63,219 nt of DNA from a bacterium (GCA_029547225.1 JAKPPS010000052.1:1-63219); one strand, 5' to 3'; counted from the stretch's first letter, positions 20,099-39,681 are shown. Numbers and translations: made by a program. Notes: generated from the sequence alone by a model not told the origin.

Positions 20099-20866
20099 TT
20101 AAAGAATTATTACTATCGCCATAAGAGCAAATAATATTGGTGGCAAATACCCACTAAAATGCCTTTCCCCTGATAACCTGATATGCCAGAATGACAATAA
20201 CATATAAAAAACAAGTACAATTGCAAACGGATACACAAAGAAATTTAATACTCTCGCAAAATACGCTACCAAACCGACAATAAAAGCAAATATTAGCGCT
20301 ATAAATAATCCAGTAGTCGTATACTGTTGAGAAATACTTAATGCAGAGATTAATAGCAACAGGACAGCTAATCCAGTAATTAGCGAAATTGTCTGATATG
20401 TAAATAATCCGGAATACTGCATCCCGCTAACGATGCAAAATATAAACACAATATTTATTAGATCAAAGATCACTCTCGTATTCTTCTCAATAGAATACTG
20501 CTTGAGATAAGAGCTTTTAATGTTAGTAAAAAGTATAAAGAGACAAATCACACCTATTAATATTATAAACTGCTTATAAAAATCATTACTAACAAAGAAA
20601 AGATAGAGAGATACCGAAGAAAAAAAGATCGAAGGTATAAATATGTAACTTATCCACCTCTGCTTTATCTGCATTTTTATCATTGTTTCAGAATATTGAG
20701 ATATCTTTCTTGTAGAGTATTTCGACAATGTTGTGATACACCATACAAGGACTAATACTAGACCTAGCCCATACATATAAATATGGAAGGAATTATCAGA
20801 AAACGATGATATTTCCCACAGTACGAATATCATAATTGTATAAACAAGTTCCTTTCTAAATGACAT
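20099..20866 (-). CDS. Polytopic membrane protein, hypothetical
   Basis: About 7 hydrophobic helices. It overlaps the upstream CAP-domain gene by 11 nt, which suggests co-transcription. Confidence 0.55.
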   Translation of the reverse strand: MSFRKELVYTIMIFVLWEISSFSDNSFHIYMYGLGLVLVLVWCITTLSKYSTRKISQYSETMIKMQIKQRWISYIFIPSIFFSSVSLYLFFVSNDFYKQFIILIGVICLFILFTNIKSSYLKQYSIEKNTRVIFDLINIVFIFCIVSGMQYSGLFTYQTISLITGLAVLLLLISALSISQQYTTTGLFIALIFAFIVGLVAYFARVLNFFVYPFAIVLVFYMLLSFWHIRLSGERHFSGYLPPILFALMAIVIIL

Positions 20867-22247
20867 TTCCTGTAAATCCCCAAATTAAACCTGAAACCAA
20901 TAAAAACCACCAAACTCCGACAAAAAGTAATGAGTATGATCTCTGAGCTAGTTTACCCATTTTTGCATAGTACTTAATCTCAATAATCATTAATACCATA
21001 ACTAACAATGCTATTGCGAAACCTACGATATCCTTGAAAGAATATTTTGTAAGAAGATTATCTTGAATAAAATTTACTAAAGTATTCTGCTCTGCTGTAT
21101 TTTCAGCCTTTGCAACAGAACTTAATATATTCGTTATATCTTTTTCAATACTATTACCATAAGCATCAGTTGCAATTATGGTTGCTGTTTTAACGTTCTT
21201 AGGTATCGTCACTGAATACATACCAGTTTTATTAATATTCATAACATAGCTTTTGCTACCAGCGCTCAGCAATATTTCTGGAGATTGCTCCGCTGTAGCA
21301 ACACTTATTTCAATATTTTTACCAAGAACGCTTGCAACAATTGCATCATCTGAAATTTCAGGAGGAGTTGTATCGACAATAAAATCGACTTGATCAAAAA
21401 TATCTTTGTTATTATCGGATGTCGCTTTAACTGTATTATTTCCTTCTGTCCAATCTCGATTTCCTATGTATTGCCATTTTCCATCGTCTCCGATAGAAAC
21501 ATTACCCAATGGTGATTGATTATTTTCAAGCACTAAAGTGCCTGCCTGCCCATCAGCGCTACCTTCGATACGTAGTCGGCTCTCATTAATCACCTGATTA
21601 TCCAAAGGATATGAGATTTTTATACTCTTGATCTCTCCACTCTCTTTGATTTGTTGAATCTTTTGACCACTTACTGACATTGGAGCTTCAACCACTTCAG
21701 ATGTGATATTACCAAACATTTGTACTACTAAAATAACATCTTCACCCAACAAATTTCCATTAACTACTGCGATGCCGATATCTTGGTAATTTCCACTTAT
21801 GATATTCTCTCTATGTGTTGGGCTTGCCATCCATGCCTGATGCAATCCCTCTGCAGTCTGAAAGCCTTTTGCTAAATTTTCGCCGGCAAAAACATATTCA
21901 TATTGAGCATCATCAATAAACTGCCATGGAGTTTGTCCATCTGGTCCAAAATGATCCCAATATTGATTAGCTAACATATCGTTTGCTTTTGCATATGCCG
22001 CGGAAGTGAGTTTAGCATTAGCTTTAAGCTCATTTAAATCATAATTTCTACGCTCTGAATTAGTGTATTCGATAAGCTTATCTGCAGTTATTGAACTGGC
22101 ATAAGCCTTCTGCTGTAATCCAGGAACATATAAAGGTATGAAATTTGAGATTAGGATCAAAAATGTATAAAAAAGCAATGCCACCTTACGTAAAAGATAT
22201 GGTTGATATTTATTTTTTTCATGTGGTATAAAAAGCAGTTTGAGCAT
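20856..22247 (-). CDS. CAP/SCP (YkwD-like) domain protein with Ig-like region and C-terminal TM helices
   Basis: NSERRNYDLNELKANAKL..., GENLAKGF, HQAWMASPTHRENII and YQDIGIAVV are CAP-domain motifs. There is an N-terminal anchor and two C-terminal helices. Confidence 0.75.
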   Translation of the reverse strand: MLKLLFIPHEKNKYQPYLLRKVALLFYTFLILISNFIPLYVPGLQQKAYASSITADKLIEYTNSERRNYDLNELKANAKLTSAAYAKANDMLANQYWDHFGPDGQTPWQFIDDAQYEYVFAGENLAKGFQTAEGLHQAWMASPTHRENIISGNYQDIGIAVVNGNLLGEDVILVVQMFGNITSEVVEAPMSVSGQKIQQIKESGEIKSIKISYPLDNQVINESRLRIEGSADGQAGTLVLENNQSPLGNVSIGDDGKWQYIGNRDWTEGNNTVKATSDNNKDIFDQVDFIVDTTPPEISDDAIVASVLGKNIEISVATAEQSPEILLSAGSKSYVMNINKTGMYSVTIPKNVKTATIIATDAYGNSIEKDITNILSSVAKAENTAEQNTLVNFIQDNLLTKYSFKDIVGFAIALLVMVLMIIEIKYYAKMGKLAQRSYSLLFVGVWWFLLVSGLIWGFTGNVI

Positions 22248-25774: not shown

Positions 25775-26875
25775 TTAATTACCTTCTATGCTATTTTGCG
25801 CATTTTTTGTTATTAAATCATATATTTTATCCATGTAACCAAGAAATTCTTGAGCTGTTATGTCTTCATCCATAATTATGAGCCAATAGGAATACAATGC
25901 CGCCAATTGTTCATCAGGACTATCACTTCTCAACATATTAACTAAATAAGGGTCTGGCTTATTGTGTAGAAAATAGTGTACTAATCTGGGCAGAAATCCT
26001 CTTGGATCAACAGAAGAAAAATCACCATTCGCTTCGTCGAGATATCCCCTAAAATATCCATCGCTATTAATATATAATCTAATATTATGTAATCCTGATA
26101 AACTAGGATTTGTTACTTCTGGATCACTATCTTTAATCATTGCTATTATCTGTATGAGTACGGCGGGCAATTCTCGATAACCAGTGACTTCTATCGTATC
26201 CTCGCCATCAATACTTACTAGAACAGGTCTATAATATGTAGGGTTTCTAAAAAGATCTCGCAAATTTGTATCTTCAAGATGAAAAGTGATTCCCAATTTT
26301 GATCGACCTTGAGGACGAGGATTAGCAGATTGCTGTGCGATATGAGTTAATTCGTGTAAAGCGGTTTCTTTAGGTTCTTTTACCAATGCGGAATTAAAAT
26401 ATACTGTTCGGTCATCAGTTTCATTATAGACCCAAGCAATTTGATCAACAGAGGGTAAATATGACGTCACCGCTCGAATTTCACCAACTACTGGGAAACC
26501 ACATTCCATTAAACTTTCTTGAGCACGAATAACTGCCGCTGTAGCATCCGCATTAGTAATATGTGGCGGATTACTAACTCTTTGGACAACAGATAAAATA
26601 TTGGCAATAATTAAAATCGAACATAATAGTAATTCTCTACCTTTCGCAGAATGAAGAATATCATTAGAAGGAAATAATCTTTGAAAAAATCTCTTCACAC
26701 TTTCCAATGGAAGAATTTCATCATTTGGTGCAGCTTGAACATTTCCCTCGGTAGGATATTTTGGTTCATCAAATATCAAATTATTTTTTTGGGGGAACGT
26801 GCTCACACTAGAGTCTGGAGGAGTAAATTGTGATTTCCTAAGTAAAAATGCACTTTCCCAGATATGCGATTGCAT
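25775..26875 (-). CDS. Membrane-anchored hypothetical protein with HExxH (HELTH) zincin-like motif
   Basis: Hydrophobic segment ELLLCSILIIANILSVV near residue 90. KETALHELTHIAQQ motif. It lies 129 nt downstream of the giant-paralog array on the same strand. Confidence 0.55.
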   Translation of the reverse strand: MQSHIWESAFLLRKSQFTPPDSSVSTFPQKNNLIFDEPKYPTEGNVQAAPNDEILPLESVKRFFQRLFPSNDILHSAKGRELLLCSILIIANILSVVQRVSNPPHITNADATAAVIRAQESLMECGFPVVGEIRAVTSYLPSVDQIAWVYNETDDRTVYFNSALVKEPKETALHELTHIAQQSANPRPQGRSKLGITFHLEDTNLRDLFRNPTYYRPVLVSIDGEDTIEVTGYRELPAVLIQIIAMIKDSDPEVTNPSLSGLHNIRLYINSDGYFRGYLDEANGDFSSVDPRGFLPRLVHYFLHNKPDPYLVNMLRSDSPDEQLAALYSYWLIIMDEDITAQEFLGYMDKIYDLITKNAQNSIEGN

Positions 26876-27004: not shown

Positions 27005-30000
27005 TTACTTTACTCGAACAAAATACCCCGCATTTGGAAAAAGTTTATAGTCAAACCCGTAATCTGTGTCATCTATAGATAAATAATTTTTATACTGGCC
27101 ATTTTCCCATTTTGAAACTGTATCAATATCGGATGATAATATTTCATTATCATTGTTTATTAGTGTATCCGCTGTCATATCCTTAATTGGATTTGGTATA
27201 CCTATTAAGTTCCAGCCGATATTTAAGTCATAATTAGGATTTTCTGTAAAACGGTGTCCGTTTAGCCTGAAAGATATTTTACTTTCGGCTTTAACAAAAT
27301 AGGCCTCACCAGGTAATATTGAAAAGTTTTCTCCATAAGGAATATCGCCTCTACGTGATGAAATCATCCACTTACCATCTCGATAAGTAGAAATGTGCAT
27401 TATTGGTATATCCTGAGATTGAAAATATGTTAACAGTTGTTGTGAATCCTGAATTGTTCGACCATTTGCATCGCTTATGACCATAGGTATGGATATAAGA
27501 TTCCAACCTTTTAGCATATCATAATCCGTAAAATGAATTTGAGATTCTAACTCAACAGTAACCGTATCAAGTATTGGTTCATTTTCCTGTTTTATGCCGT
27601 CTTTATTTAGGTCATTAAATACTTTTACCTCTTGTCCCGGTGAATAGAATATATATTTTGAAGTAGTCTGATAACCCTCAACTGATGGAGTATACATTCC
27701 TTCGTACTGAGTGTCTTGCGCTTTTACTTTATTTATAAAAATGTTTTCTAATATGGATGAACCTTGAGAAGTTGTTACTCCAACTAAAACCTCATCTGTT
27801 CTACATTTCAAAGAATAAGTTGCATAATTTAATATTGCAGAAGGATATTTAGAACAAAAATCGTAGTTCTTCTCTAAAGCTAGGCTATAAGATTCACATG
27901 AAGCGTTTTTAAGTATTCCATCTGCAAGAGTCTGGCCAATATCGCTTTTAACATCTTCATAAACCTGAGTGCCACATTTTTCGTTTCCATTACTATCATA
28001 AAAAATATAACCTCCACCATTATTAGATCGAGCTTCAGCACCTACTTCTGTAGCTACCGTCCTACAAAAAGTATAATTAGAACCAGAAACAAATCCACAT
28101 CCAGCGAGATCTGATAATTTCCCTTCATTTAGTTTATCTAGGTACTCTTTATCGGATTTGAATAATTGGATATAGTGACCAACTTCATGTTCAAGAATAT
28201 CGTATTTTGCACAATTACTTATTGTGTTAATCCATGTTCCACACTGCAGGGTTGAGCCAGATGCGAGACAACCTGTATCGCCAGAAGTTAAAATTAGTCC
28301 GCCATAATTTACACAATTTTCACATTTAGCATCTGTATTGCTGTTACATCCACATTCTTTATTATAAATTTCCCGCCACATTTCTTCAGTATCGAGAGAA
28401 TTTACTTTATTTTTTTCTTTTTTCCATATTTCATCAGAGATATAGCTTGGCTTTCCAGAACATAGTCCATCGTTAATAACTTGTGAAGCTTGACAAGCTG
28501 AATTATATTGATCCAAAATGCACATTGAGGATTGACAAGTAAAACCATATACACAATTGTGAGTAGATCCTGTCCAAGTACAGCTTTCTCCGTCTAAAGC
28601 ATTATGCTCAACTCGATTTTCGAGATATGCTTCACCACAGGATAATTTGCCAAAATCTCCTCCAAGTAAGCCTTGTTCATTTTGACCTTCTTGATTGTGT
28701 TCATAAAAATTTTCACAATAATCGTCTCCAGATTCATTTTCAATACAAATCCCGCTCAAACACCTTTTTGGTATTTCACAATCATTCGGATCACCCTCTT
28801 TACATCTAGCTAATGAAGCACCTGTATCATCACAAAAATATTTTTTTGCCGGAATTTCATTAGTAATGGATGTCTTACTCTTGCAAACTCCTTTCGTATA
28901 ATCCCATGTGCATCCGAGATTTAATCCTTCACCTACTTGATTACATGCATCTATTGAGAGCAATAAATCACATCTATCACACCCACGGTTTCCAAGAGTC
29001 TTTTTTGCAGTATCATCAATATTGCATAGTTTATTACTTTTATCTACTTCTATAAATGGTCCACAAAAATACTGCCATTGGCAATTCTGTCTACCATCCT
29101 CGCACTCTTCTTCACACCCATTTTTCTTATCAAGATCATCACATTTATCGTTACCACATGTACAATCTTGAGCACAATTTTCACCTGTGTCACATTCTCC
29201 GTCTCCGCATTTGTTCTCAGCTGGCGGATTGATTGGAGCTGCACGCATAACACATCTACCACTCCTAACTTCACAGCCGATACTTGCAAATGCTTCACAA
29301 TCTTCGACTGGTATTTTCGAGCAAGCATCAGCAAAAACTTGATTAATTAACAGACTATTACTCGATTCGGAGAAGTCTTTCAATTGATCATTTTGAGTTT
29401 CAATAAATGATAATTTTTCTAAGACGATATTATCAACTGGTTTAATCTTTGTATTGGGCACCTCTATTGTTTTCTTTGCGTATGGTCCAATAGCCTCAAC
29501 TACTAAAGTCCAGTCTTTTTCAAAAGTCATTTCTTGACCAGTGACAGAATAAATTGTACCAATATCCATACTCCAACCAGTACCATTATCTGTCACAGAA
29601 GTAAGATTCTGTGAAACACCATCAGTAGGGTTTTTTACATATGCCCTTACTATTACATCATCATATGTCTCCCCATATTGATCAAATACATATCCATAAA
29701 TAGGATTAGGTGTTTTGATGGATTCACGAATAGGAAAAGTATTAATACTTCCGCCGAGACTTGTGGTAAAGATGCCTGTATTAAAACGATAATTGTATTC
29801 AGTTTCTGGATCTAAGCCATAGATTGTTACGTGATGAGAATAATATTTACCTTTATCTATCAATTCATATTTCCCTTGACTTATCTCTTCAATATCTCTT
29901 GTATCATAAAATTTCTTATTATTTTGGAGAAAAGATAATATGAAAAACTTATTATCTGTGCTAATTTCTATTTCGCCTGGATATTTTGTATATGTCGTCC

Positions 30001-30205
30001 ATGATAATGTCGCACTATTTGAAGTAATATTGGATATCGTAATATTATTTACTTCACCTTTATAATTTCGATCTGTAATCAAATACCAAACATATACCCC
30101 CGCTACAATAAGTACAATTACTGCTAAAACAATAGCTATTATTGTTAGAGTTCTTGATTTTTTCTTAACTGTCGGTTCATTTATTATCGCTTGATTCTCG
30201 AACAT
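27005..30205 (-). CDS. Giant cysteine-rich surface protein, paralog C (1066 aa) with HEVGH zincin motif
   Basis: N-terminal anchor (TIIAIVLAVIVLIVAGVYVWYL). FN3/PAP-N-like domain (ATLSWTT...HHVTIYGLDPETEYNYRF). Cys-rich core including CGDGECDTGENCAQDC. HEVGH at 28175-28189. C-terminal GWNL/PGEAYF tandem module. Confidence 0.85.
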   Translation of the reverse strand: MFENQAIINEPTVKKKSRTLTIIAIVLAVIVLIVAGVYVWYLITDRNYKGEVNNITISNITSNSATLSWTTYTKYPGEIEISTDNKFFILSFLQNNKKFYDTRDIEEISQGKYELIDKGKYYSHHVTIYGLDPETEYNYRFNTGIFTTSLGGSINTFPIRESIKTPNPIYGYVFDQYGETYDDVIVRAYVKNPTDGVSQNLTSVTDNGTGWSMDIGTIYSVTGQEMTFEKDWTLVVEAIGPYAKKTIEVPNTKIKPVDNIVLEKLSFIETQNDQLKDFSESSNSLLINQVFADACSKIPVEDCEAFASIGCEVRSGRCVMRAAPINPPAENKCGDGECDTGENCAQDCTCGNDKCDDLDKKNGCEEECEDGRQNCQWQYFCGPFIEVDKSNKLCNIDDTAKKTLGNRGCDRCDLLLSIDACNQVGEGLNLGCTWDYTKGVCKSKTSITNEIPAKKYFCDDTGASLARCKEGDPNDCEIPKRCLSGICIENESGDDYCENFYEHNQEGQNEQGLLGGDFGKLSCGEAYLENRVEHNALDGESCTWTGSTHNCVYGFTCQSSMCILDQYNSACQASQVINDGLCSGKPSYISDEIWKKEKNKVNSLDTEEMWREIYNKECGCNSNTDAKCENCVNYGGLILTSGDTGCLASGSTLQCGTWINTISNCAKYDILEHEVGHYIQLFKSDKEYLDKLNEGKLSDLAGCGFVSGSNYTFCRTVATEVGAEARSNNGGGYIFYDSNGNEKCGTQVYEDVKSDIGQTLADGILKNASCESYSLALEKNYDFCSKYPSAILNYATYSLKCRTDEVLVGVTTSQGSSILENIFINKVKAQDTQYEGMYTPSVEGYQTTSKYIFYSPGQEVKVFNDLNKDGIKQENEPILDTVTVELESQIHFTDYDMLKGWNLISIPMVISDANGRTIQDSQQLLTYFQSQDIPIMHISTYRDGKWMISSRRGDIPYGENFSILPGEAYFVKAESKISFRLNGHRFTENPNYDLNIGWNLIGIPNPIKDMTADTLINNDNEILSSDIDTVSKWENGQYKNYLSIDDTDYGFDYKLFPNAGYFVRVK

Positions 30206-30222
30206 ATTACTAATATGATAAA

Positions 30223-33200
30223 TTATTCAGGCAAAAACTCATCGCCTGTCACACTTAAGACTCTGACAAAATAACCATAGTTTGGATAAACATTATAATC
30301 ATAACTATACTCTTCTTCACCGGTTTTTACAATATTGATATACCTACCATTGTCCCATTTACTCAATGTATCAGATGTAAACCCAGAACTATTCAGTTGA
30401 TTTAAAATCTCAAATCCGGAATAATATTCTTTATTTGAATTATAAATACCAATTAAATTCCATCCAGGATTCAAAATTACTGGCAAAACTCCATCTACTT
30501 TTTTACCTACAAGCTCTATCAAAGCTTCTCTATGATTCAATATGAAATATGCTTCACCAGGAATAATACTAAAATCATCACCGAATGGGACGATCGATCC
30601 TTCTTCATCTTCACGCAAAGAATATGAATAAAATTTTCCATCTAAATACGTCGAAATTGACGTTATATCTGCATTTTGGAGATTTGCAAAATAGATCAGA
30701 TCAGATGCTTTCGATAATTTTGAGGAATTATCACCTTCAAAGACATACGGGAAATGCAACAAATTCCAACCAACTTTTAATTTATATTGTGCTACTGTAT
30801 TTTCCTTATATATTTTATATCCCATTGATTTGATTATTTTATTTGAAATATAATAATCATCACCATTCATAATCCCATTGTTATCAAGATCCTTATAAAA
30901 CACGATCGTATCATCTGGGCTCACGTACAAAGTTTTAACAATATTGTCATAACTCGTTATTGAAAAAACACCAGAATCTAATTCTTCTACTTCTTCATTA
31001 CTCGATGTATTCTTAATAAATAGTTTATCTAATTGATTATTAGATAACTCAAGGCTGGAAGTAGTGACTGGCTCTAAAGTAGGTTTTCTATCACAATTAA
31101 TAAACGGCCCACCCGGGAATGAATCAAAAAGCTCCTTTTGTTTCTCAACGGTACAGCTTTCCTTATCCACTCCAGCCATACCAAAATGAAGATGATATTC
31201 TGTTGATATAGATCCCGTATTTCCAGTAATAAGATTGGTACAATCACCTATATATGCATCATTTTCTTGACCTCCACAAGATAATGCATCTAAATGGCCA
31301 AGCTCAAATACCGTATTCATCTCCGATGTTACAAAAGCTGTACAACCTTCAGTTGTCCACTTTGTATAACAACCGTCTGGGAAGTAATCGTTAATGATAT
31401 CTTCTGAAAGTGGCACAGAAGTAACTGCGATATCTATTGCACAAGTAAAATCTTTGAATTGGTCTCTGTCGTCAGAATGGGACAAATAGGAATTTGAATT
31501 ATTTATTATTGCAGGTCCTTGGGAAACGGGAACATATTTATTTCCGATACCAACACATAATCCAGTTTGAGTACTGCTATTAAACGGAAGTTCGTTAATA
31601 CTAATGCAAGTGTTCGTATATCCGTTTTTATTATCTGGAAGATAGAAAGTCGTACACCTTCCATTTGTACCATCAAAACTACATTCTTCAAGAGAATATT
31701 CCGAGCATTCCTTTTCTTCTACAATCTTACTATTACAACGATATGACGAGTCAGATACCCTAGTCCATTCACAAAGAAGAGAATATTTATCACATATTTC
31801 TTTATACTTTATTGATGAGCATACTGGTTTTTCTACTGTTTCGTATTCATTTGGGAGAGGAAGGTCGTCTTTTGCAGAAATACATTTTTCATAATTTGTA
31901 TCCCATTTGCATCTCTCATCGAGCGAACATCTTGTTAAATCAAATTTATTGCATTCTGAAATTGCATTAATACATCTTCCATATGGGTTACTAACACCTT
32001 CGTTGGTTGGTGGAATGTATATGCAGCGATTACTTGTTTTGCATATTGCTTCTGGGAAGAGCTCACAGTTTTCAAGACTTGCTGGAATATCACGACAAGA
32101 TTCAATACCATTTTCATCAGTTGCCCACTCACAATCTGAATTATTTTTTCCACACTCTAACTGTGAAAAGGAACTACAACTTTGATAATTAGAAATGTTC
32201 ACACCAAATCCCTTTGCAAAAACTTCATGTGTACATACTGAGTTCCATACACAATCACCTCTTTTACAATCATCTTCGTTTAGATAAACACCACACTGCT
32301 CAACCGGTAATGCCAAAATTGGGTTATTACTTCTAACACAAGAATCATCCTTTGACAGATCTTTACTTTCTCTACAAACATATCCGTTTGCACATTCTTT
32401 TATTGTGCCACTAATGACATTAGATAATTTATTATCTTGCGTACATTTTAGTCTTTTTTGAGATACACCTTCCTCATCACCCTGATCATTGATTACATTT
32501 TTATCAGCACACCAATTATCACAATCTAAATTTCCATGTGAGTCAAAATTTAAATCACTATTTTTTACACACGATTTTATATTATTACACTTACATTGAG
32601 TTTCGTTTTCTTTACATTTGTTATTATTAAATGTACCCGTAACTGAAATTCCAGTATTTGTTTTACACTTACTCGAAGTCTTATCGCATATTTGATTACT
32701 CGAACATTGGCCACAAGTACCACCACAACCATCAGAGCCACATTCTTTATTATCACAAGAAGGTTTACAGGTGATAGAGTTATCTTCCTTACCTGCAGTA
32801 GTTTTATCTACATCTGATATTTGTGCAGAAAATACCTTAGGAAGCAAATTTAAAATTTCTTGCTGTTGGTCGCTATTATTATTAAGAATCATTTGCTCAG
32901 TTGGTTGTATATCTTCTATCGGTGAATACGATGTTGATGAATAAGATGAGTTTATCGCATTAACAGTTAATTCAGAATTACCATATATTGGATATTTTGA
33001 AGTGCCATCTGATAATCTAATGTTTGCAAGATCAATCGACCAACCTCTTTTACCATCTAAAGGATAACTATATATCTGTGAAACCACATCTTGATCGTCT
33101 GAAATAGTAAATATAACTAGGGAATCTTCAGATAATTGACCGAATTCGTCCGTAACAATACCATATGCTGGTTGCGGAGTTGAGATTTCCTCAAGCGTAG

Positions 33201-33672
33201 AAAAAGTCTCGAAAGACAAATCAGAATATGAAGGTAAAACTAGGAAGCCAGAGAAAATACTAAAATGATAGTCTTTGCTTGGAGAGAGATTATCTATCGT
33301 AATACTATGTGTATAGCGAGGAAGTTTTTTGTATGAATAGCTATCTTTATCAATCTCGATTTTGTCTCTGTCATCATATATTCTTGCATTCTGGTTAAAC
33401 GATAAAAATGTCTTCTGAGAAGAATCATTTACTATTAAGCTTCCTGTACTTTTATACGTAGTTGTCCAAGTAATTGTAGCGCTTGTATCAGTAATATTTG
33501 TAACCATTAAGTTGTTTACTGATCTAGAAACAATAATATTCCAAATTAAATTACTAAGAAGAAATAAAATTACTATTGTCAATAACCCAATCAATAATTT
33601 ATTGAGTATACTAGAATTGTTCTGATCTGTTATTTTTGTTGACTTATTAAATTTTGTTTCTGAAGGATTCAT
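30223..33672 (-). CDS. Giant cysteine-rich surface protein, paralog B (1149 aa) with M23/LytM-like signature
   Basis: Same N- and C-terminal modules as the other two paralogs. Contains CGSDGCGGTCGQC, about six 4-Cys repeats, and AIDIA...LGHL...GNTGSISTEYHLHF (31174-31452). It lies 17 nt upstream of paralog C. Confidence 0.85.
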   Translation of the reverse strand: MNPSETKFNKSTKITDQNNSSILNKLLIGLLTIVILFLLSNLIWNIIVSRSVNNLMVTNITDTSATITWTTTYKSTGSLIVNDSSQKTFLSFNQNARIYDDRDKIEIDKDSYSYKKLPRYTHSITIDNLSPSKDYHFSIFSGFLVLPSYSDLSFETFSTLEEISTPQPAYGIVTDEFGQLSEDSLVIFTISDDQDVVSQIYSYPLDGKRGWSIDLANIRLSDGTSKYPIYGNSELTVNAINSSYSSTSYSPIEDIQPTEQMILNNNSDQQQEILNLLPKVFSAQISDVDKTTAGKEDNSITCKPSCDNKECGSDGCGGTCGQCSSNQICDKTSSKCKTNTGISVTGTFNNNKCKENETQCKCNNIKSCVKNSDLNFDSHGNLDCDNWCADKNVINDQGDEEGVSQKRLKCTQDNKLSNVISGTIKECANGYVCRESKDLSKDDSCVRSNNPILALPVEQCGVYLNEDDCKRGDCVWNSVCTHEVFAKGFGVNISNYQSCSSFSQLECGKNNSDCEWATDENGIESCRDIPASLENCELFPEAICKTSNRCIYIPPTNEGVSNPYGRCINAISECNKFDLTRCSLDERCKWDTNYEKCISAKDDLPLPNEYETVEKPVCSSIKYKEICDKYSLLCEWTRVSDSSYRCNSKIVEEKECSEYSLEECSFDGTNGRCTTFYLPDNKNGYTNTCISINELPFNSSTQTGLCVGIGNKYVPVSQGPAIINNSNSYLSHSDDRDQFKDFTCAIDIAVTSVPLSEDIINDYFPDGCYTKWTTEGCTAFVTSEMNTVFELGHLDALSCGGQENDAYIGDCTNLITGNTGSISTEYHLHFGMAGVDKESCTVEKQKELFDSFPGGPFINCDRKPTLEPVTTSSLELSNNQLDKLFIKNTSSNEEVEELDSGVFSITSYDNIVKTLYVSPDDTIVFYKDLDNNGIMNGDDYYISNKIIKSMGYKIYKENTVAQYKLKVGWNLLHFPYVFEGDNSSKLSKASDLIYFANLQNADITSISTYLDGKFYSYSLREDEEGSIVPFGDDFSIIPGEAYFILNHREALIELVGKKVDGVLPVILNPGWNLIGIYNSNKEYYSGFEILNQLNSSGFTSDTLSKWDNGRYINIVKTGEEEYSYDYNVYPNYGYFVRVLSVTGDEFLPE

Positions 33673-33795: not shown

Positions 33796-36700
33796 CTATT
33801 CAGGGATATAGCTGCCACCTGTTTCACTTAATACCTTAACAAAGTAACCGGCTGTTGGGAAAACCTTATAATCATAGCCATATTCCATGTTATCAGAATA
33901 TACTACTGAATTGTACTTACTATTTTCCCATTTACTTAAGGTATCAGCGACTACTCCCTGACCTTCCATCTGCTTGAGAACATCGAAGGCTTGATAGTTA
34001 TCTACATCTTGTTTGTAGATATTGACTAAATTCCAACCTGGAAGAAGTTGTAGTGGCAAGGCATTTTCATATGCATAACCAACCATAGAAGCTGTTCCAC
34101 TATTTCTACTCTTTACAAAATATGCTTCACCCGGAAGAATAATGAAATTATTACCAACTTCAACATCCTCTCCATTAATATCTTCCTTCATTGAGTATGA
34201 TTCAAACTTGCCTTCACGGTATGTCGCTATCTCTTCAACTAAAATTTCTCTCGCTCTTAGATATTCGTAAATGTCATTTGCAGTTGAAGACTTTTCTTGA
34301 TCAAGAACAAATGGGAAGGATACTAAATTCCAACCTTTACTAAAATCATAGTTTTTTGCTGATTCCACCATCACATAACCAACACCAAGATTTTCGACTT
34401 CATAAGGAGTAAGGATTCTTTCGCCCTCATCTCTGACATTATTTTTGTTCGCATCGTCAAAATAAGCAATATGCGTTTCATTACTTAAGACTAATTTCTC
34501 ATTTGCATTCCCTGTTGATGTATAAATACCAGGTTTTAAGACAGGATCAGAGATTACATTTTCTTGTGCTTTTACATCATTTTTAAAGATATTTAATAAG
34601 GAATTAGTCTCTGTTTCTCCTTCAACTCCAACTTCTAATGTACTCATACCACATGGAAAAGCCCCTGATGGAATATAATCTGTAATGCTTGCGCAGGGTT
34701 TCCAATCTCTTTGTTCATATGTTGGATAGAAAATAGAAACTACTTCATCCTGAATATTTAATTGATTATCATTACAGACAGTCATGGTTGTACAGTCTTC
34801 ACTTTGATAATCAAGATTTGTCAACTTATAAATTTGATCTGAAAAAACTAAATCATTATTCTTACTGCTTATTGAAACTGAAGCTGAGCATTTATTATTC
34901 TCCCAATCGTATTCAGCAGAGCAACCAACTTCGTAGCCGTACAAATCATCCTCTGAGTAATTAGGAAATATTGAGTTAATAGACAGGCCATCTTCCGGAA
35001 GTTCAATTTCAACGTTACAATAACCTTCCTCAGTATTTGAAAGATCACTTATTGGTTTTTCATCTCCACCAACAAATACGCAGTATTCTATTCCTTCTTC
35101 GTTTGAATCTCCAACTTTGAAGCTTATTCCGGATTCACAATTCCCTTCACCTGCTTCAATAACACCATTATTATTACTATCAAGTTCAACCCATGCACAT
35201 GACATGCTTTCTGCTCCATATACATAATGCTCATTGCATTCTTTTTTTCCATATTGAGTTAATGATTCACAACCCTCAACATAAGGCGAAAACGGAAGTG
35301 TACAAACTCCTTCACCCGAAGCAAAAGCTGTCCAATCATAACCATACTTCAAGCATTTTTGCTCATCAAAAATCTGATCAGGTTTTATGGCATTTTGTTC
35401 AATAAAAGACGAATCTACACAACCTGTAGAATTAGAATCGACAAAATAGCTATTTTGAGAATGCGTATCACTTGCAACTACTGTAATTGTCTGATTTTGT
35501 TCATTATTATCTATCCAAGCGCAGCCTGCTTCTAGACAACGACCTACGAGAGGAAATTCCGAATCAAAATCATTAATAGCCTCACAATTGACCTGGCCAT
35601 TAATCATGTAAGTAGCACATTCATCATCTTCGTTGTCATCATTTACCACACAATCACAATCCTCATAGAGAACCTGTTGGTTTAATTGGTTATTTCTATA
35701 CAATGCACCTGTTGCTCGATCACACACATACTGTTTCGAACTTTCTTGACAAAACCCCTCATCCTCTCCTGGTCGCACAAAAAATTCACATTTCAAATCA
35801 TCAAGCATGTTTTCGCAACCTTCTTCTGAATTAAAATCCATACATTCATCTATTCCATCATATATACACTCATTATTCGAACAATACATCCCATTTGTAC
35901 ATTCCGCTAAGTCTGTAAAGCAAGCTCTTCCCACTTCTTCTTTTACACAGGCACCCTCGCCATCGTCAATGTCTCCATCTGCGACATCTACTTTACTCAT
36001 TGGCTCACAATATTCATTAGATTTACAATCAGTATTTTTGGTACAAGAAGTATAATTCTCGACTTCATAGTAATCTCCCTCAGAAGTTTGGTACATACAC
36101 TTTCCATTTAAGCAGAATTGATTTTGTCCGCATTCCTCGTTTTTACTACATGCAAATACAGTAGGAAAGCCCTTAACACATTTATTTTTTATACAATCAT
36201 ATTGACTATCTCTACAATCATCTGCATTATTACAATAATCAAATTTTTGACATGTTGGAGGGCGATTTCCGACTCTAATACATTTTAGATTTTGATCACA
36301 TGAATCATCTTCATCTAATTCACATCTATCTCCGACTCGTGCAGGTCGTTCTGTTTCTGGTTGACTTTGATTTTGTTGACTAGTTGAACCTGATACAGAA
36401 TTTTGAGAAGGAGTCGGCTGAGTATCTGTAGCAGGCTTGGGTTTTAAAAATGATCCAGAAACGGAGCCACCAGATCTAGGTGAATCTCCTCCTCCATCAA
36501 TTACTGGATCTTGTTCAAACGGATTAGCAGCAAACAATCGGTTTACAAGAAGTTTATTCGACTCTTTAACGATCTCCTCTGCGTCATCTGATTTAATTAT
36601 TAAATCAGGGCATGGTGCGATATTCTCTGCATTAAATTGAATCGATTTCTCTTTTCCATCTACAATAGCTGAAAGCTCTGCTATAACTTCATTATCAAAT

Positions 36701-37392
36701 ACAAACAATTCGTCAGAATCTTGTATGCGTATATTTGCAATATCAATCGTCCATGTATTGTTATTACTTGCCAAAGCAGATAAAATTTGTGATTTTTGAT
36801 CTGCACGATTAACAAATGATATCGTAACAATAGGATTATCGTTAACCTCATTTGCCACAGATATTGCGCCAAAAGTAGGTTTTGGTGTAGTCATTGTTTC
36901 GAGTTCTGAATATGTTTTGAACTTTTGACTGAATTTATCGATTGGAAGCACAAAATCTGATATTGCTATCGAATACTCTTTTGAAGATTCCAGCCCGCTT
37001 ACTACGACATAGTGATTATAGTATTTACCCTGATCAACTTTCACAAACTGATTTGGGGATATCTCCTGATAATCGCGAAAGTCAAAGTACTTGTAACCAG
37101 TAATAAAATCAAAAAGTTTATTTTCGTTTTTGTCAGTAAGATAGACTATTGAGCTTGTAGGTTTTGTTGTAGTCCACGATATTGCGGCAGATTCTGAGGT
37201 TATTGAGGTGATTTGAAAATTTGAAATATCCTTTGCGTTATTCTGATTAATTAAATATATTGCTATGCCACCGATTATAGCAATAAAAAGAACTAGCAAA
37301 ATGTAAAACCACCATTTTGAAAGAATCAATTTCTTTGATGTGCTCGCAACATTTTGTGTTGCAACATCAGCAGTTTGATCTTGAGTGACCAT
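33796..37392 (-). CDS. Giant cysteine-rich surface protein, paralog A (1198 aa), no catalytic motif seen
   Basis: N-terminal anchor (WWFYILLVLFIAIIGGIAIYL). FN3-like domain (AAISWTT...HYVVVSGLESSKEYSIAI). Ser/Gly/Pro/Gln linker. EGF- or knottin-like Cys repeats. C-terminal GWNL/PGEAYF tandem module ending LSETGGSYIPE. Confidence 0.85.
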   Translation of the reverse strand: MVTQDQTADVATQNVASTSKKLILSKWWFYILLVLFIAIIGGIAIYLINQNNAKDISNFQITSITSESAAISWTTTKPTSSIVYLTDKNENKLFDFITGYKYFDFRDYQEISPNQFVKVDQGKYYNHYVVVSGLESSKEYSIAISDFVLPIDKFSQKFKTYSELETMTTPKPTFGAISVANEVNDNPIVTISFVNRADQKSQILSALASNNNTWTIDIANIRIQDSDELFVFDNEVIAELSAIVDGKEKSIQFNAENIAPCPDLIIKSDDAEEIVKESNKLLVNRLFAANPFEQDPVIDGGGDSPRSGGSVSGSFLKPKPATDTQPTPSQNSVSGSTSQQNQSQPETERPARVGDRCELDEDDSCDQNLKCIRVGNRPPTCQKFDYCNNADDCRDSQYDCIKNKCVKGFPTVFACSKNEECGQNQFCLNGKCMYQTSEGDYYEVENYTSCTKNTDCKSNEYCEPMSKVDVADGDIDDGEGACVKEEVGRACFTDLAECTNGMYCSNNECIYDGIDECMDFNSEEGCENMLDDLKCEFFVRPGEDEGFCQESSKQYVCDRATGALYRNNQLNQQVLYEDCDCVVNDDNEDDECATYMINGQVNCEAINDFDSEFPLVGRCLEAGCAWIDNNEQNQTITVVASDTHSQNSYFVDSNSTGCVDSSFIEQNAIKPDQIFDEQKCLKYGYDWTAFASGEGVCTLPFSPYVEGCESLTQYGKKECNEHYVYGAESMSCAWVELDSNNNGVIEAGEGNCESGISFKVGDSNEEGIEYCVFVGGDEKPISDLSNTEEGYCNVEIELPEDGLSINSIFPNYSEDDLYGYEVGCSAEYDWENNKCSASVSISSKNNDLVFSDQIYKLTNLDYQSEDCTTMTVCNDNQLNIQDEVVSIFYPTYEQRDWKPCASITDYIPSGAFPCGMSTLEVGVEGETETNSLLNIFKNDVKAQENVISDPVLKPGIYTSTGNANEKLVLSNETHIAYFDDANKNNVRDEGERILTPYEVENLGVGYVMVESAKNYDFSKGWNLVSFPFVLDQEKSSTANDIYEYLRAREILVEEIATYREGKFESYSMKEDINGEDVEVGNNFIILPGEAYFVKSRNSGTASMVGYAYENALPLQLLPGWNLVNIYKQDVDNYQAFDVLKQMEGQGVVADTLSKWENSKYNSVVYSDNMEYGYDYKVFPTAGYFVKVLSETGGSYIPE

Positions 37393-37695: not shown

Positions 37696-39681
37696 ATGAA
37701 AAAAGTAAAAACGGCAATCGTATATTATAAATATTATTCTCATGGAAATATCTGCACAGTAGAAATATCGACAGCAATATGCCGTGGTTTTCCAAGTACC
37801 AAAATTATTGGCATGAAGCCTAAACAAGCTCGAGTAATAATTGAAAAAATAAATATTGCTTTAAAATCTGCAGGATATAAATTGCCTCAAGAAAAAACCA
37901 GAATTTATCTAAAGTATTACAAAGGAAACAATTCAGATCAGTTAATACCCTCTAATCTTTCTCTTGAATTACCAATCGCAATCAGTATTTTGCTTTGTTC
38001 AAATCAGATATATTTTGTCTCCGAGTCTAAAGTTATCAACGATAACATTACCGACTCAATTCCAAAAGTTGACTTAAATAATAATAGTTTAGCTACAAAT
38101 AGTTATTCAGTTTTCGCTGGAGGCGATCTAAGTTTTGATAGTTCAATCTCAGGTTATACAGAAATACTGCCCTACATAAAGTTCTTTGATAAAAAAAGAA
38201 GAATCGTTCTAACGAGAAGTAGAAAACCCGAGATAACAAAATCAACTCATAATATTTTTGTGGTATTACCTGACAAGTGCAGGGAATTAGTTCTATATTT
38301 ACAAAATCAAGGATACGAAATCAAAAACAATAGTAATTTGCGATTTATTTTTATTGATTCGCTTACTAATCTGCAGCAATCAATTAATCTTTTCCTCAAT
38401 AAAGAAGTAGCTAATAGAGATCCACTTTTTCACTCTAATACACTGTTAGTAGATGAAAACAAATCTGTTCAAAAAATTTCCTACAATATTGATAAAAAAT
38501 TTAATCCTTGCAAGAGTGAGAAAACCGTATTAAAGAAAACCTTATCAAACACAGAAACGAAAAGTAAATCAGAATCTCGATTGCAGCTACCTACAAAAAT
38601 TACTATTCCGACTGACAAGATTTCATATTTAAGCAAGCCACAGAATAATTATATTTCAAAAGAAAATTTAACAACACTAAATTACTTAGTAGGACAAGAG
38701 AGTGCAAAAAGAGCATGTATTATTTCTGCAGGCGGTGGGCATCATATACTCTTTATCGGTCCTATCGGATCAAGTAAAACATTATTAGCCCACTCTATTT
38801 CAGAAATCACCCCATCGTTATCATTGTATGAAATTCTTGATATGGCAAGGTACCATAGAGTTAAAATCGAAGAGATAGAACAATACTTGCAAAAGATAGA
38901 TACTGCAAATAAAAATCTCCGGAATGTTCGAATATTCGAATTAAGCAGACCAATTATAGAAATAATGCATAACACTACAATACCAGGTCTTCTCGGTAAT
39001 AAGAATAATCCTGGTTTACTTGCAAAATCAGATAAGGGTTTTTTGTTACTAGATGAGATATCAGAGATAAGTAGCTCAGTATTAAACTCATTAAAATCAT
39101 CTTTAGACTATAGACAGATAAAAGTCGGAGCAAACGAGATTATACCTACACGATATACACTTATTGCAACTTCTAACACTTGTCCTTGCGGTAAAGATGC
39201 AAAGGATTGCAAATGTAGGCTTGGAGAGAAAATAAATTACATAAAAAAGATACCGGAATCACTGATTAATCGGATTGATTTACTTTCTCGAGTAAGTGTT
39301 ACCGATTTTAGTTCAGTATCTTCAGCGCAGAATAGTTTATCTGGTCATATAAATAATGTAAAAGATTCAATCGATTATAGAAATATCGTAAAGAAAGTTC
39401 GAGAAATCCAAAATCGTCGATATATTAATGAGAATTTCCGTACTAATGCAGAGATAACACTAGACAAAATCAATACTTATTGTGAGTGTACATCATCAGC
39501 TACAAAAATCTTACATACCTCAATTGAGAAATTGGGATTAAATGGCCGAGATTATATAAAAATACTAAAGATAGCACGAACAATCGCCGACTTAGAGTCC
39601 AAAGAAATAATAACTGAAGAAAACATATACGAAGCCCTGTCGTACAGAACTACCTCTTTGAGAACTGAGGTTTCTTTCTAG
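37696..39681 (+). CDS. comM: YifB/ComM-family Mg-chelatase-like AAA+ ATPase with a large insertion
   Basis: GQESAKRACIISAGGGHHILFIGPIGSSKT (Walker A), GFLLLDEISE (Walker B), NTCPCGKDAKDCKC zinc motif and LINRIDLL. At 661 aa it is longer than the roughly 500 aa I recall as usual for this family. Confidence 0.85.
   Translation: MKKVKTAIVYYKYYSHGNICTVEISTAICRGFPSTKIIGMKPKQARVIIEKINIALKSAGYKLPQEKTRIYLKYYKGNNSDQLIPSNLSLELPIAISILLCSNQIYFVSESKVINDNITDSIPKVDLNNNSLATNSYSVFAGGDLSFDSSISGYTEILPYIKFFDKKRRIVLTRSRKPEITKSTHNIFVVLPDKCRELVLYLQNQGYEIKNNSNLRFIFIDSLTNLQQSINLFLNKEVANRDPLFHSNTLLVDENKSVQKISYNIDKKFNPCKSEKTVLKKTLSNTETKSKSESRLQLPTKITIPTDKISYLSKPQNNYISKENLTTLNYLVGQESAKRACIISAGGGHHILFIGPIGSSKTLLAHSISEITPSLSLYEILDMARYHRVKIEEIEQYLQKIDTANKNLRNVRIFELSRPIIEIMHNTTIPGLLGNKNNPGLLAKSDKGFLLLDEISEISSSVLNSLKSSLDYRQIKVGANEIIPTRYTLIATSNTCPCGKDAKDCKCRLGEKINYIKKIPESLINRIDLLSRVSVTDFSSVSSAQNSLSGHINNVKDSIDYRNIVKKVREIQNRRYINENFRTNAEITLDKINTYCECTSSATKILHTSIEKLGLNGRDYIKILKIARTIADLESKEIITEENIYEALSYRTTSLRTEVSF

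Follow-up and report, generated by a model that had tools for sequence, protein, structure and literature searches.

What does the conserved end of three very large and otherwise highly divergent proteins do? The question is posed by three adjacent genes, here called A, B and C, in a 63,219-nucleotide stretch of bacterial DNA (GCA_029547225.1 JAKPPS010000052.1:1-63219), the whole of which we refer to as the window. The product of each gene (for brevity, the giants) closes with two related units of about 90 residues each, which together form a pair of about 185 residues. Three properties of the pair seem secure: it is extracellular, it is a single folding and evolutionary unit, and it is autonomous. 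As to its role, our tentative answer is that it may be a module that binds a conserved partner outside the cell, which would probably be a glycan or an envelope polymer; we rate this as possible, at somewhat less than even chances.

The first unit of each pair carries the motifs GWNL[ILV]..P, [ST]Y.[DE]GK[WF] and F.I[IL]PGEAYF[VI], and the second carries GWNL[IV].I, [DT][TV][LV]SKW[ED]N..Y and Y[GS][FY]DY..[FY]P..GYFV[KR]V. All seven motifs quoted for A, B and C in the initial annotation of this DNA, which had been made from the sequence alone, were found at the positions it gave. Among the open reading frames (ORFs) of at least 50 amino acids in the six frames of the window (37,490 residues), GWNL occurs six times, and all six occurrences lie in these modules. 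A final motif, LS.TG..[FY][IL]PE, is present only in A (LSETGGSYIPE) and B (LSVTGDEFLPE), as first described; it is absent from C in every frame, and C ends with two stop codons. In protein numbering, the spans originally given are A 1019-1198, B 967-1149 and C 899-1066. These boundaries need correction: each unit begins about 7-10 residues ahead of GWNL with a leading beta-strand, and the conserved C-terminal block reaches about 100 residues further upstream (residues 911-1187 of A align with 798-1065 of C at 34% identity).

Equivalent halves of the pair are 39-49% identical between paralogs (E 1e-19 to 1e-31), and the first and second halves share 16-32% identity (E 9e-3 to 1e-11). When a profile of 163 first units was aligned with a profile of 167 second units using hhalign, the two matched over 85 columns with a probability of 99.8% and an E-value of 1.3e-28, which bears out the description of the halves as related sub-domains in tandem. 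On these alignments the tandem duplication is real and older than the split of A, B and C. The possibility that the resemblance is a product of chance or composition, with no real domain behind it, had been named at the outset and can be given practically no weight, as the pairwise and hhalign E-values are far beyond chance, relatives number in the thousands and the AlphaFold2 models are confident.

The pair is also the best-conserved part of the giants, in agreement with the initial annotation. Per 50 columns of a three-way alignment, 7-16 are identical in the module; the N-terminal block has 6-10 such columns, the middle 1-7. The nonsynonymous divergence (dN) across paralogs is 0.56-0.73 for the pair versus 0.79-1.0 for the conserved N-terminal block. 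A dN/dS comparison across the paralogs, which had been proposed as a check, proved unusable because the synonymous divergence (dS) is saturated (1.3 to undefined).

To characterize the domain, we compared it with Pfam-A (2025 copy, 24,736 models), NCBIfam (release 20) and PHROGs (v4). No Pfam-A match fell on the pair in the full proteins A, B and C, in 10 relatives or in 10 distant relatives. When 45 single units were scanned against Pfam-A at E<=1, 18 families appeared, each matched by one unit only (best E 0.0047). NCBIfam gave no match on the pair, and PHROGs none for A, B or C. For one distant relative (P0227), a match to an endolysin PHROG that seemed to reach the pair was an over-extension and disappeared when the pair was scanned alone, leaving a single weak match to phrog_16022, a family of unknown function (E 1.3e-4). 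In a profile search of all PDB sequences, the pair profile had no match and the unit profile a best E of 0.26. Since Pfam-A, NCBIfam, PHROGs and PDB hold no match, the original suggestion of a possibly novel domain stands. Among the papers listed in literature searches, we found none relevant to the GWNL motif and, among those on Dojkabacteria, none on these proteins.

AlphaFold2 modelled the pair with high confidence (pLDDT 95.9, pTM 0.89), as it did a single unit (unit 2 of A with its tail; pLDDT 94.2). The predicted unit runs from a leading strand through the GWNL strand, a 10-residue helix, a hairpin, a short strand and the PG.[AG]YF[VI] strand to a closing strand, which amounts to about seven strands and one helix, and the two units are predicted to pack as a single rigid, pseudo-dimeric body. 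A structural comparison with lectin, immunoglobulin-like or jelly-roll folds had been suggested; the confident model it called for was obtained, but Foldseek found no such neighbour, nor any other, in PDB at E<=0.001 (best for the pair, E 0.079 and TM-score 0.23; for the single unit, E 0.24 and TM-score 0.42). Among the predicted viral structures of BFVD, the best match was a phage 'Bacterial repeat domain-containing protein' (probability 0.96, TMq 0.42), whose E-value of 0.069 is not significant. We treat this match as a lead towards the InlB B-repeat type of fold (Flg_new_2, PF18998; beta-grasp-like). Flg_new_2 domains adjoin the pair in several distant relatives (P0201, P0222 and P0259), whereas the pair itself has no Pfam match to Flg_new (PF09479) or Flg_new_2, and no B-repeat structure appeared in the PDB search. 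From the models, it is possible that the pair represents a new fold.

The search for further members that the initial annotation had recommended uncovered a very large family. A HMMER profile search of the module against 1.84 billion cluster representatives found relatives in 14,832 representatives at E<=1e-3, 4,146 at E<=1e-10 and 857 at E<=1e-30. The module had been described from these three proteins; judged by sequence, it belongs to a very large family that lacks annotation and is carried by secreted or membrane-anchored proteins in candidate phyla radiation (CPR) bacteria, other bacteria and archaea. For the close family, we examined a sample of 168 proteins, made up of the best 150 of the 14,832 matches, earlier hits, and A, B and C. 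Exactly two units are present in 165 of these, and the median distance between the end of the pair and the C-terminus is 8 residues. The 120 close relatives that look full-length have a median length of 1,053 amino acids and a median cysteine content of 3.4%, and 108 of them possess an N-terminal hydrophobic 19-mer or helix. The close relatives are proteins of about 1,000 amino acids from Dojkabacteria and other CPR bacteria, in which a transmembrane helix and FN3 domain are followed by a cysteine-rich, variable middle and then the pair.

A search seeded with distant members added 419 further proteins, all of them named 'hypothetical' or after their other domains. Among the 123 of these that were examined, 119 contain exactly two units; the pair ends a median of 0 residues from the C-terminus and lies within 15 residues of it in 89%. 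The copy number is therefore two in 284 of the 291 close and distant proteins, which identifies the pair as the evolutionary unit. In a few distant relatives (P0201, P0221 and P0248) the pair is N-terminal or internal. The named sources of the distant members include Thermoplasmata, Thermoplasmatales, Aenigmarchaeota, Anaerolineae and Deltaproteobacteria, and the partner domains are PKD, FN3, cohesin, Big_5, LTD, DUF11, NosD, FG-GAP and Flg_new_2. A GH25 muramidase precedes a C-terminal pair in two related proteins (P0216 and P0227), as does a cohesin domain in three others (P0181, P0192 and P0197). Other proteins consist of a transmembrane helix and the pair (P0010 and P0011) or of a signal peptide and the pair (P0261), and we regard the pair as autonomous because such proteins exist. 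Cleavable signal peptides of the ordinary type are found in many family members.

In species-representative genomes, 15 related loci were found with an alignment of nine sequences; an alignment of three gave no confirmed relative in genome contigs. Most of the loci belong to Dojkabacteria, one to Blackburnbacteria and several to genomes that bear the label Saccharibacteria. These loci repeat the layout in which the N-terminal block is followed by a variable middle and then the pair, and a hidden Markov model of the N-terminal block recovers that block in 14 of the 15, on the pair-bearing frame or on the frame directly upstream. Adjacent pair-bearing paralogs also occur in other Dojkabacteria (for example, at locus L017), and pair-bearing genes cluster with other surface-protein genes. 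Synteny is not conserved: when ten neighbours from the window were compared with the 15 loci, only RNase Y (once) and genes with a CAP (cysteine-rich secretory protein) domain (twice) recurred. Two scans of viral contigs gave no confirmed relatives, and a tblastn search with the pairs of A and P0227 gave no match in 50,697 phage records.

The setting of the pair is taken to be extracellular because of the N-terminal transmembrane helices or signal peptides of its carriers and their PKD, FN3, cohesin, Big_5, LTD, DUF11, FG-GAP and NosD partners. In the giants, the order from N- to C-terminus is a charged N-terminus, a transmembrane helix, the FN3 block, the cysteine-rich middle, a pre-pair block and the pair. 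Their N-termini are short and positively charged and precede one hydrophobic helix of 22-24 residues, which exceeds the length of a cleaved signal peptide. The 46-50 cysteines of each giant all fall between residues ~261 and ~914, in the middle; the N-terminal block has none, and the final 190 residues, where the pair lies, are likewise free of cysteine. Because positive charges precede the helix and the cysteines are confined to the middle, the giants are predicted to be membrane-anchored in an N-in/C-out topology, with the C-terminus outside the cell. The phrase 'membrane-distal tip', used for the pair in the initial annotation, is to be read as an inference about geometry.

Between the anchor and the pair, the proteins differ in how strongly they are conserved. 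About 150 additional conserved residues follow the FN3/Pur_ac_phosph_N domain of the N-terminal block (a Pfam Pur_ac_phosph_N/fn3 match). The middle, of roughly 550-650 residues, cannot be aligned between the paralogs; in A it contains a DUF7107 match (residues 386-433) and a weak Dickkopf_N-like match in Pfam. The pre-pair block carries a D.N.NG..D..E loop and, in C, a weak SdrD_B match (Pfam, E 0.084), and the profile positions that cover it (4-60) are matched in most top relatives. The FN3-containing N-terminal block of the giants was also seen at locus L023 (10915-12177), on a 421-aa protein with Big_13 and CarboxypepD_reg domains that lacks the pair, and on account of this reuse the block is regarded as a separate mobile module.

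If the pair is a binding module, as we tentatively propose, it would recognise a conserved, non-variable partner, most likely a glycan or a polymer of the cell envelope that belongs either to the same cell or to a partner cell. It would supply a function common to all paralogs, attachment, and the unalignable cysteine-rich middle would carry the differences among A, B and C. With the transmembrane helix in the membrane, the pair could reach outward to another surface or staple the far end of the protein to the cell's own wall or S-layer. A conserved partner is suggested because the pair is the best-conserved block, with a lower dN than the N-terminal block, and the contrast with the unconserved middle suggests a partner that all paralogs and hundreds of species have in common, such as a glycan or envelope polymer, and not a host-specific receptor.

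The latter would be expected if the pair were the membrane-distal, receptor-binding domain with which this CPR cell, probably an episymbiont, identified its particular host. Attachment to hosts is widely assumed for CPR bacteria, the predicted topology places the C-terminus outside and far from the transmembrane helix, and three tandem paralogs, together with the adjacent paralogs of other Dojkabacteria, resemble adhesin arrays. However, specificity tips are normally the most variable parts of such proteins, whereas here the pair is the most conserved and the middle is variable. Moreover, hundreds of CPR lineages, as well as archaea and Chloroflexi, have kept the pair on cargo that is unrelated, including muramidase and cohesin, and it also occurs in proteins that contain little else. 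We therefore consider host-specific recognition, towards which the initial annotation had leaned, to be unlikely: the pair is a widespread, conserved, general-purpose module and is unlikely to be the specificity determinant.

Two architectures lend themselves to the proposal of a binding module, since a GH25 domain followed by the pair is arranged like a lysin and the domain by which it binds, and cohesin followed by the pair parallels anchoring scaffoldins with SLH domains. An aromatic-rich composition is common in sugar-binding modules, and the 13-16% of aromatic residues in the pair compares with it; tandem repetition at the C-terminus is likewise typical of wall-binding modules such as GW, SLH, CWB2 and LysM. 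Several observations weigh against the proposal. These architectural parallels are arguments from resemblance, and the GH25 fusion is found only in two proteins, which are fragmentary and related to each other. The pairs have an acidic pI (4.5-4.7 in A, B and C, with family medians of 4.9 and 4.2), whereas most classic modules that bind anionic wall polymers are basic. The giants are already anchored by a transmembrane helix, so that there is no evident need for another anchor directed at their own cell, and no conserved neighbour gene in the 15 related loci points to a partner. Finally, conservation is highest at residues (G, W, N, L, P, G, Y and F) that look like those of a fold core and not of a binding site.

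This core-type conservation would suit a pair that has no external ligand and instead seals or stabilises the C-terminus or drives lateral self-association into a layer. The rigid, pseudo-dimeric body predicted for the two units, the acidic and cysteine-free composition and the clustering of pair-bearing genes with other surface-protein genes would be consistent with such a cap. On the other hand, secreted or anchored proteins that consist of the pair would serve no obvious purpose as caps unless they were layer subunits, and the GH25 and cohesin fusions suit targeting better than capping. A structural or self-associating role is improbable in our view, to about the same degree as a host-specific tip.

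Comparison with characterized systems shows that the pair is in kind like familiar C-terminal tandem modules of surface proteins, while its sequence and predicted structure match none of them. The GW modules of Listeria (SH3_8) and the SLH, CWB2, LysM and SH3b modules are also tandem repeats of ~45-90 residues (GW ~80). Like the pair, wall-binding modules are typically C-terminal on secreted proteins with variable cargo, which includes muramidases and cohesin scaffoldins. The Gly-Trp dipeptide that the pair shares with the Listeria GW modules is a superficial likeness: the pair has no Pfam match to GW, SLH, CWB2, LysM or SH3b and no Foldseek match to their PDB entries. GW and SH3b have an SH3-like, all-beta fold, whereas the unit of the pair is predicted to include a helix; SLH and CWB2 characteristically occur in threes, and most classic modules for anionic wall polymers are basic. 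Carbohydrate-binding modules and lectin domains are likewise small, aromatic-rich, acidic, mostly-beta extracellular modules on diverse proteins, but the pair matches no family or structure of this kind (Pfam, Foldseek against PDB).

The C-terminal domain of the type IX secretion system (T9SS; Por_Secre_tail) provides a different comparison, as it too is a C-terminal module of ~80-100 residues behind variable extracellular cargo. The extreme C-terminal position of the pair in most family members, the variable cargo upstream and the LS.TG tail of A and B, which recalls LPXTG, could be taken to mean that the pair is a sorting or secretion signal, like the T9SS domain or a region that precedes a sortase site. 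The T9SS domain, however, is present as a single C-terminal copy, whereas the pair has two units, is N-terminal or internal in the three proteins noted above and has no Pfam match to Por_Secre_tail, CHU_C or similar domains. To our knowledge, T9SS is not expected in archaea and monoderm-type CPR bacteria. A sortase signal combines LPXTG with a hydrophobic stretch and then a tail of basic residues. Just six residues come after LS.TG in A and B, with neither a hydrophobic segment nor a charged tail, and C lacks the LS.TG motif altogether. In the model, unit 2 finishes with this tail as its final beta-strand, which corresponds to the strand linking the two units, and in relatives the tail reads G.G.[FYW].P, which is not LPXTG-like. 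The sortase reading of LS.TG was accordingly rejected, and a sorting or secretion signal of any type is very unlikely.

A bolder form of the binding proposal would see in the pair an undescribed fold and an ancient, cross-domain surface module (CPR bacteria, DPANN and Thermoplasmata archaea, and Chloroflexi), a missing device for non-covalent attachment that fixes the cysteine-rich giants of Dojkabacteria to the envelope of a partner as part of the contact apparatus between episymbiont and host. Taken as a whole, this scenario is speculative and distinctly unlikely. In CPR bacteria and small archaea, most surface proteins have no annotation beyond 'hypothetical', yet they are thought to hold these cells to hosts and surfaces. 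Here, a recurrent building block of such proteins is defined by clear boundaries, a diagnostic set of motifs, a confident model and about 15,000 representatives, and with a name for the family, thousands of proteins could be better annotated. Being small and free of cysteine, the pair is an easily expressed target for binding and structural studies. If it does bind an envelope polymer, a fluorescent fusion could probe the partners of uncultured CPR cells; if its role is no more than that of a structural cap, annotation alone would benefit.

Table 1. Genes, protein segments and neighbouring features in the window; positions are counted from its first nucleotide.
Feature	Coordinates	Strand	Length or residues	Basis or remarks
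Gene A	33796..37392	(-)	1198 aa	ORF list and translation
Gene B	30223..33672	(-)	1149 aa	Domain layout matches that of gene A; ORF list, Pfam
Gene C	27005..30205	(-)	1066 aa	Layout as gene A, without C-terminal tail strand; ORF list, Pfam
N-terminal transmembrane helix of A	37249..37314	(-)	aa 27-48	Sequence
N-terminal transmembrane helix of B	33529-33597	(-)		Sequence
N-terminal transmembrane helix of C	30077-30148	(-)		Sequence
Conserved N-terminal block of A	36529..37302	(-)	aa 31-288	FN3/Pur_ac_phosph_N and a further domain
Equivalent N-terminal block of B	32884-33585	(-)		Pfam, paralog alignment
Equivalent N-terminal block of C	29330-30133	(-)		Pfam, paralog alignment
Pre-pair conserved block of A	34357..34662	(-)	aa 911-1012	D.N.N..D.GE loop; A-C BLASTP alignment starts here
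Pre-pair block of B	30793-31176	(-)		B-C BLASTP alignment starts here
Pre-pair block of C	27530-27814	(-)		BLASTP A-C and B-C alignments
A unit 1	34093..34356	(-)	aa 1013-1100	GWNLVSFP ... TYREGKF ... FIILPGEAYFV; hmmsearch envelope, AlphaFold2 strands and helix
A unit 2 and tail strand	33799..34059	(-)	aa 1112-1198	GWNLVNI ... DTLSKWENSKY ... YGYDYKVFPTAGYFVKV, LSETGGSYIPE
B unit 1	30520..30792	(-)	aa 961-1051	hmmsearch envelope
B unit 2 and tail strand	30226..30486	(-)	aa 1063-1149	
C unit 1	27272..27529	(-)	aa 893-978	
C unit 2	27008..27238	(-)	aa 990-1066	Without tail strand; double stop directly after
HEVGH (HExxH) in the middle of C	28175-28189	(-)	aa 673-677	Lone occurrence, in Cys-rich region
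ORF directly downstream of C	25775-26875	(-)	366 aa	HELTH motif; no Pfam match
CAP domain protein	20856-22247	(-)		With Ig-like domains; ~5 kb from giants
Stem-loop, then T-rich run	30228-30248	(-)		Overlaps the final codons of B, immediately ahead of the C start
ComM-like Mg-chelatase/AAA protein	37696-39681	(+)	661 aa	Divergent from gene A
Overlap of ComM-like gene 3' end with S9 gene	39650-39681		32 bases	
Ribosomal protein L13	40066-40647	(-)	193 aa	~63 residues precede the Pfam domain

The three genes are co-directional on the minus strand, with intergenic gaps of 123 and 17 bases (Table 1). They are flanked on one side by the ComM-like gene and the genes for ribosomal proteins S9 and L13, and on the other by the unannotated 366-aa ORF, followed by RNase Y, YmdB and HU; these neighbours indicate an ordinary chromosomal housekeeping region. 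The G+C content of the region is about 33%. Identical copies of gene A are present on 8 public contigs and of gene C on 11, among them the NCBI metagenome-assembled genome (MAG) GCA_035424305.1 and several JGI and ENA metagenomes. The genome is present in communities of anaerobic digesters. Because the closest named relatives of the module, among the matches listed, are Candidatus Dojkabacteria MAGs, its homologs suggest that the host is a CPR (Patescibacteria) bacterium and most probably a Dojkabacterium.

A protease partnership between the ORF downstream of C and C itself, each with an HExxH motif, was considered and dropped: none of the 15 related loci contains a homolog of the ORF, no metalloprotease Pfam match covers the HEVGH of C, and any HExxH is present in only 3 of the 120 full-length relatives. 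The stem-loop at the end of B resembles a terminator, and terminator-like sites are no more numerous in the region than expected from shuffled sequence. The start of the L13 gene is uncertain because one public gene call at this locus gives 137 aa.

Further observations concern genes near pair-bearing genes. Frames similar to the CAP domain protein of the window adjoin pair-bearing genes at two distant loci (L023 10915-12177 and L025 2774-3559). The similarity may lie partly in the Ig-like domains, as the Pfam matches of the L023 frame are FN3 and Big_13/Big_6, with no CAP. A related Dojkabacteria MAG encodes an anaerobic ribonucleotide reductase NrdD of 1333 aa with faint intein and LAGLIDADG matches (L005 12916-16917). 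On a Thermoplasmata-type contig (L027 4277-6474), a 339-aa pair-bearing gene lies beside the cohesin and pair gene P0192, and a gene of the exosortase/archaeosortase family (EpsH) is located about 1.3 kb from these two genes.

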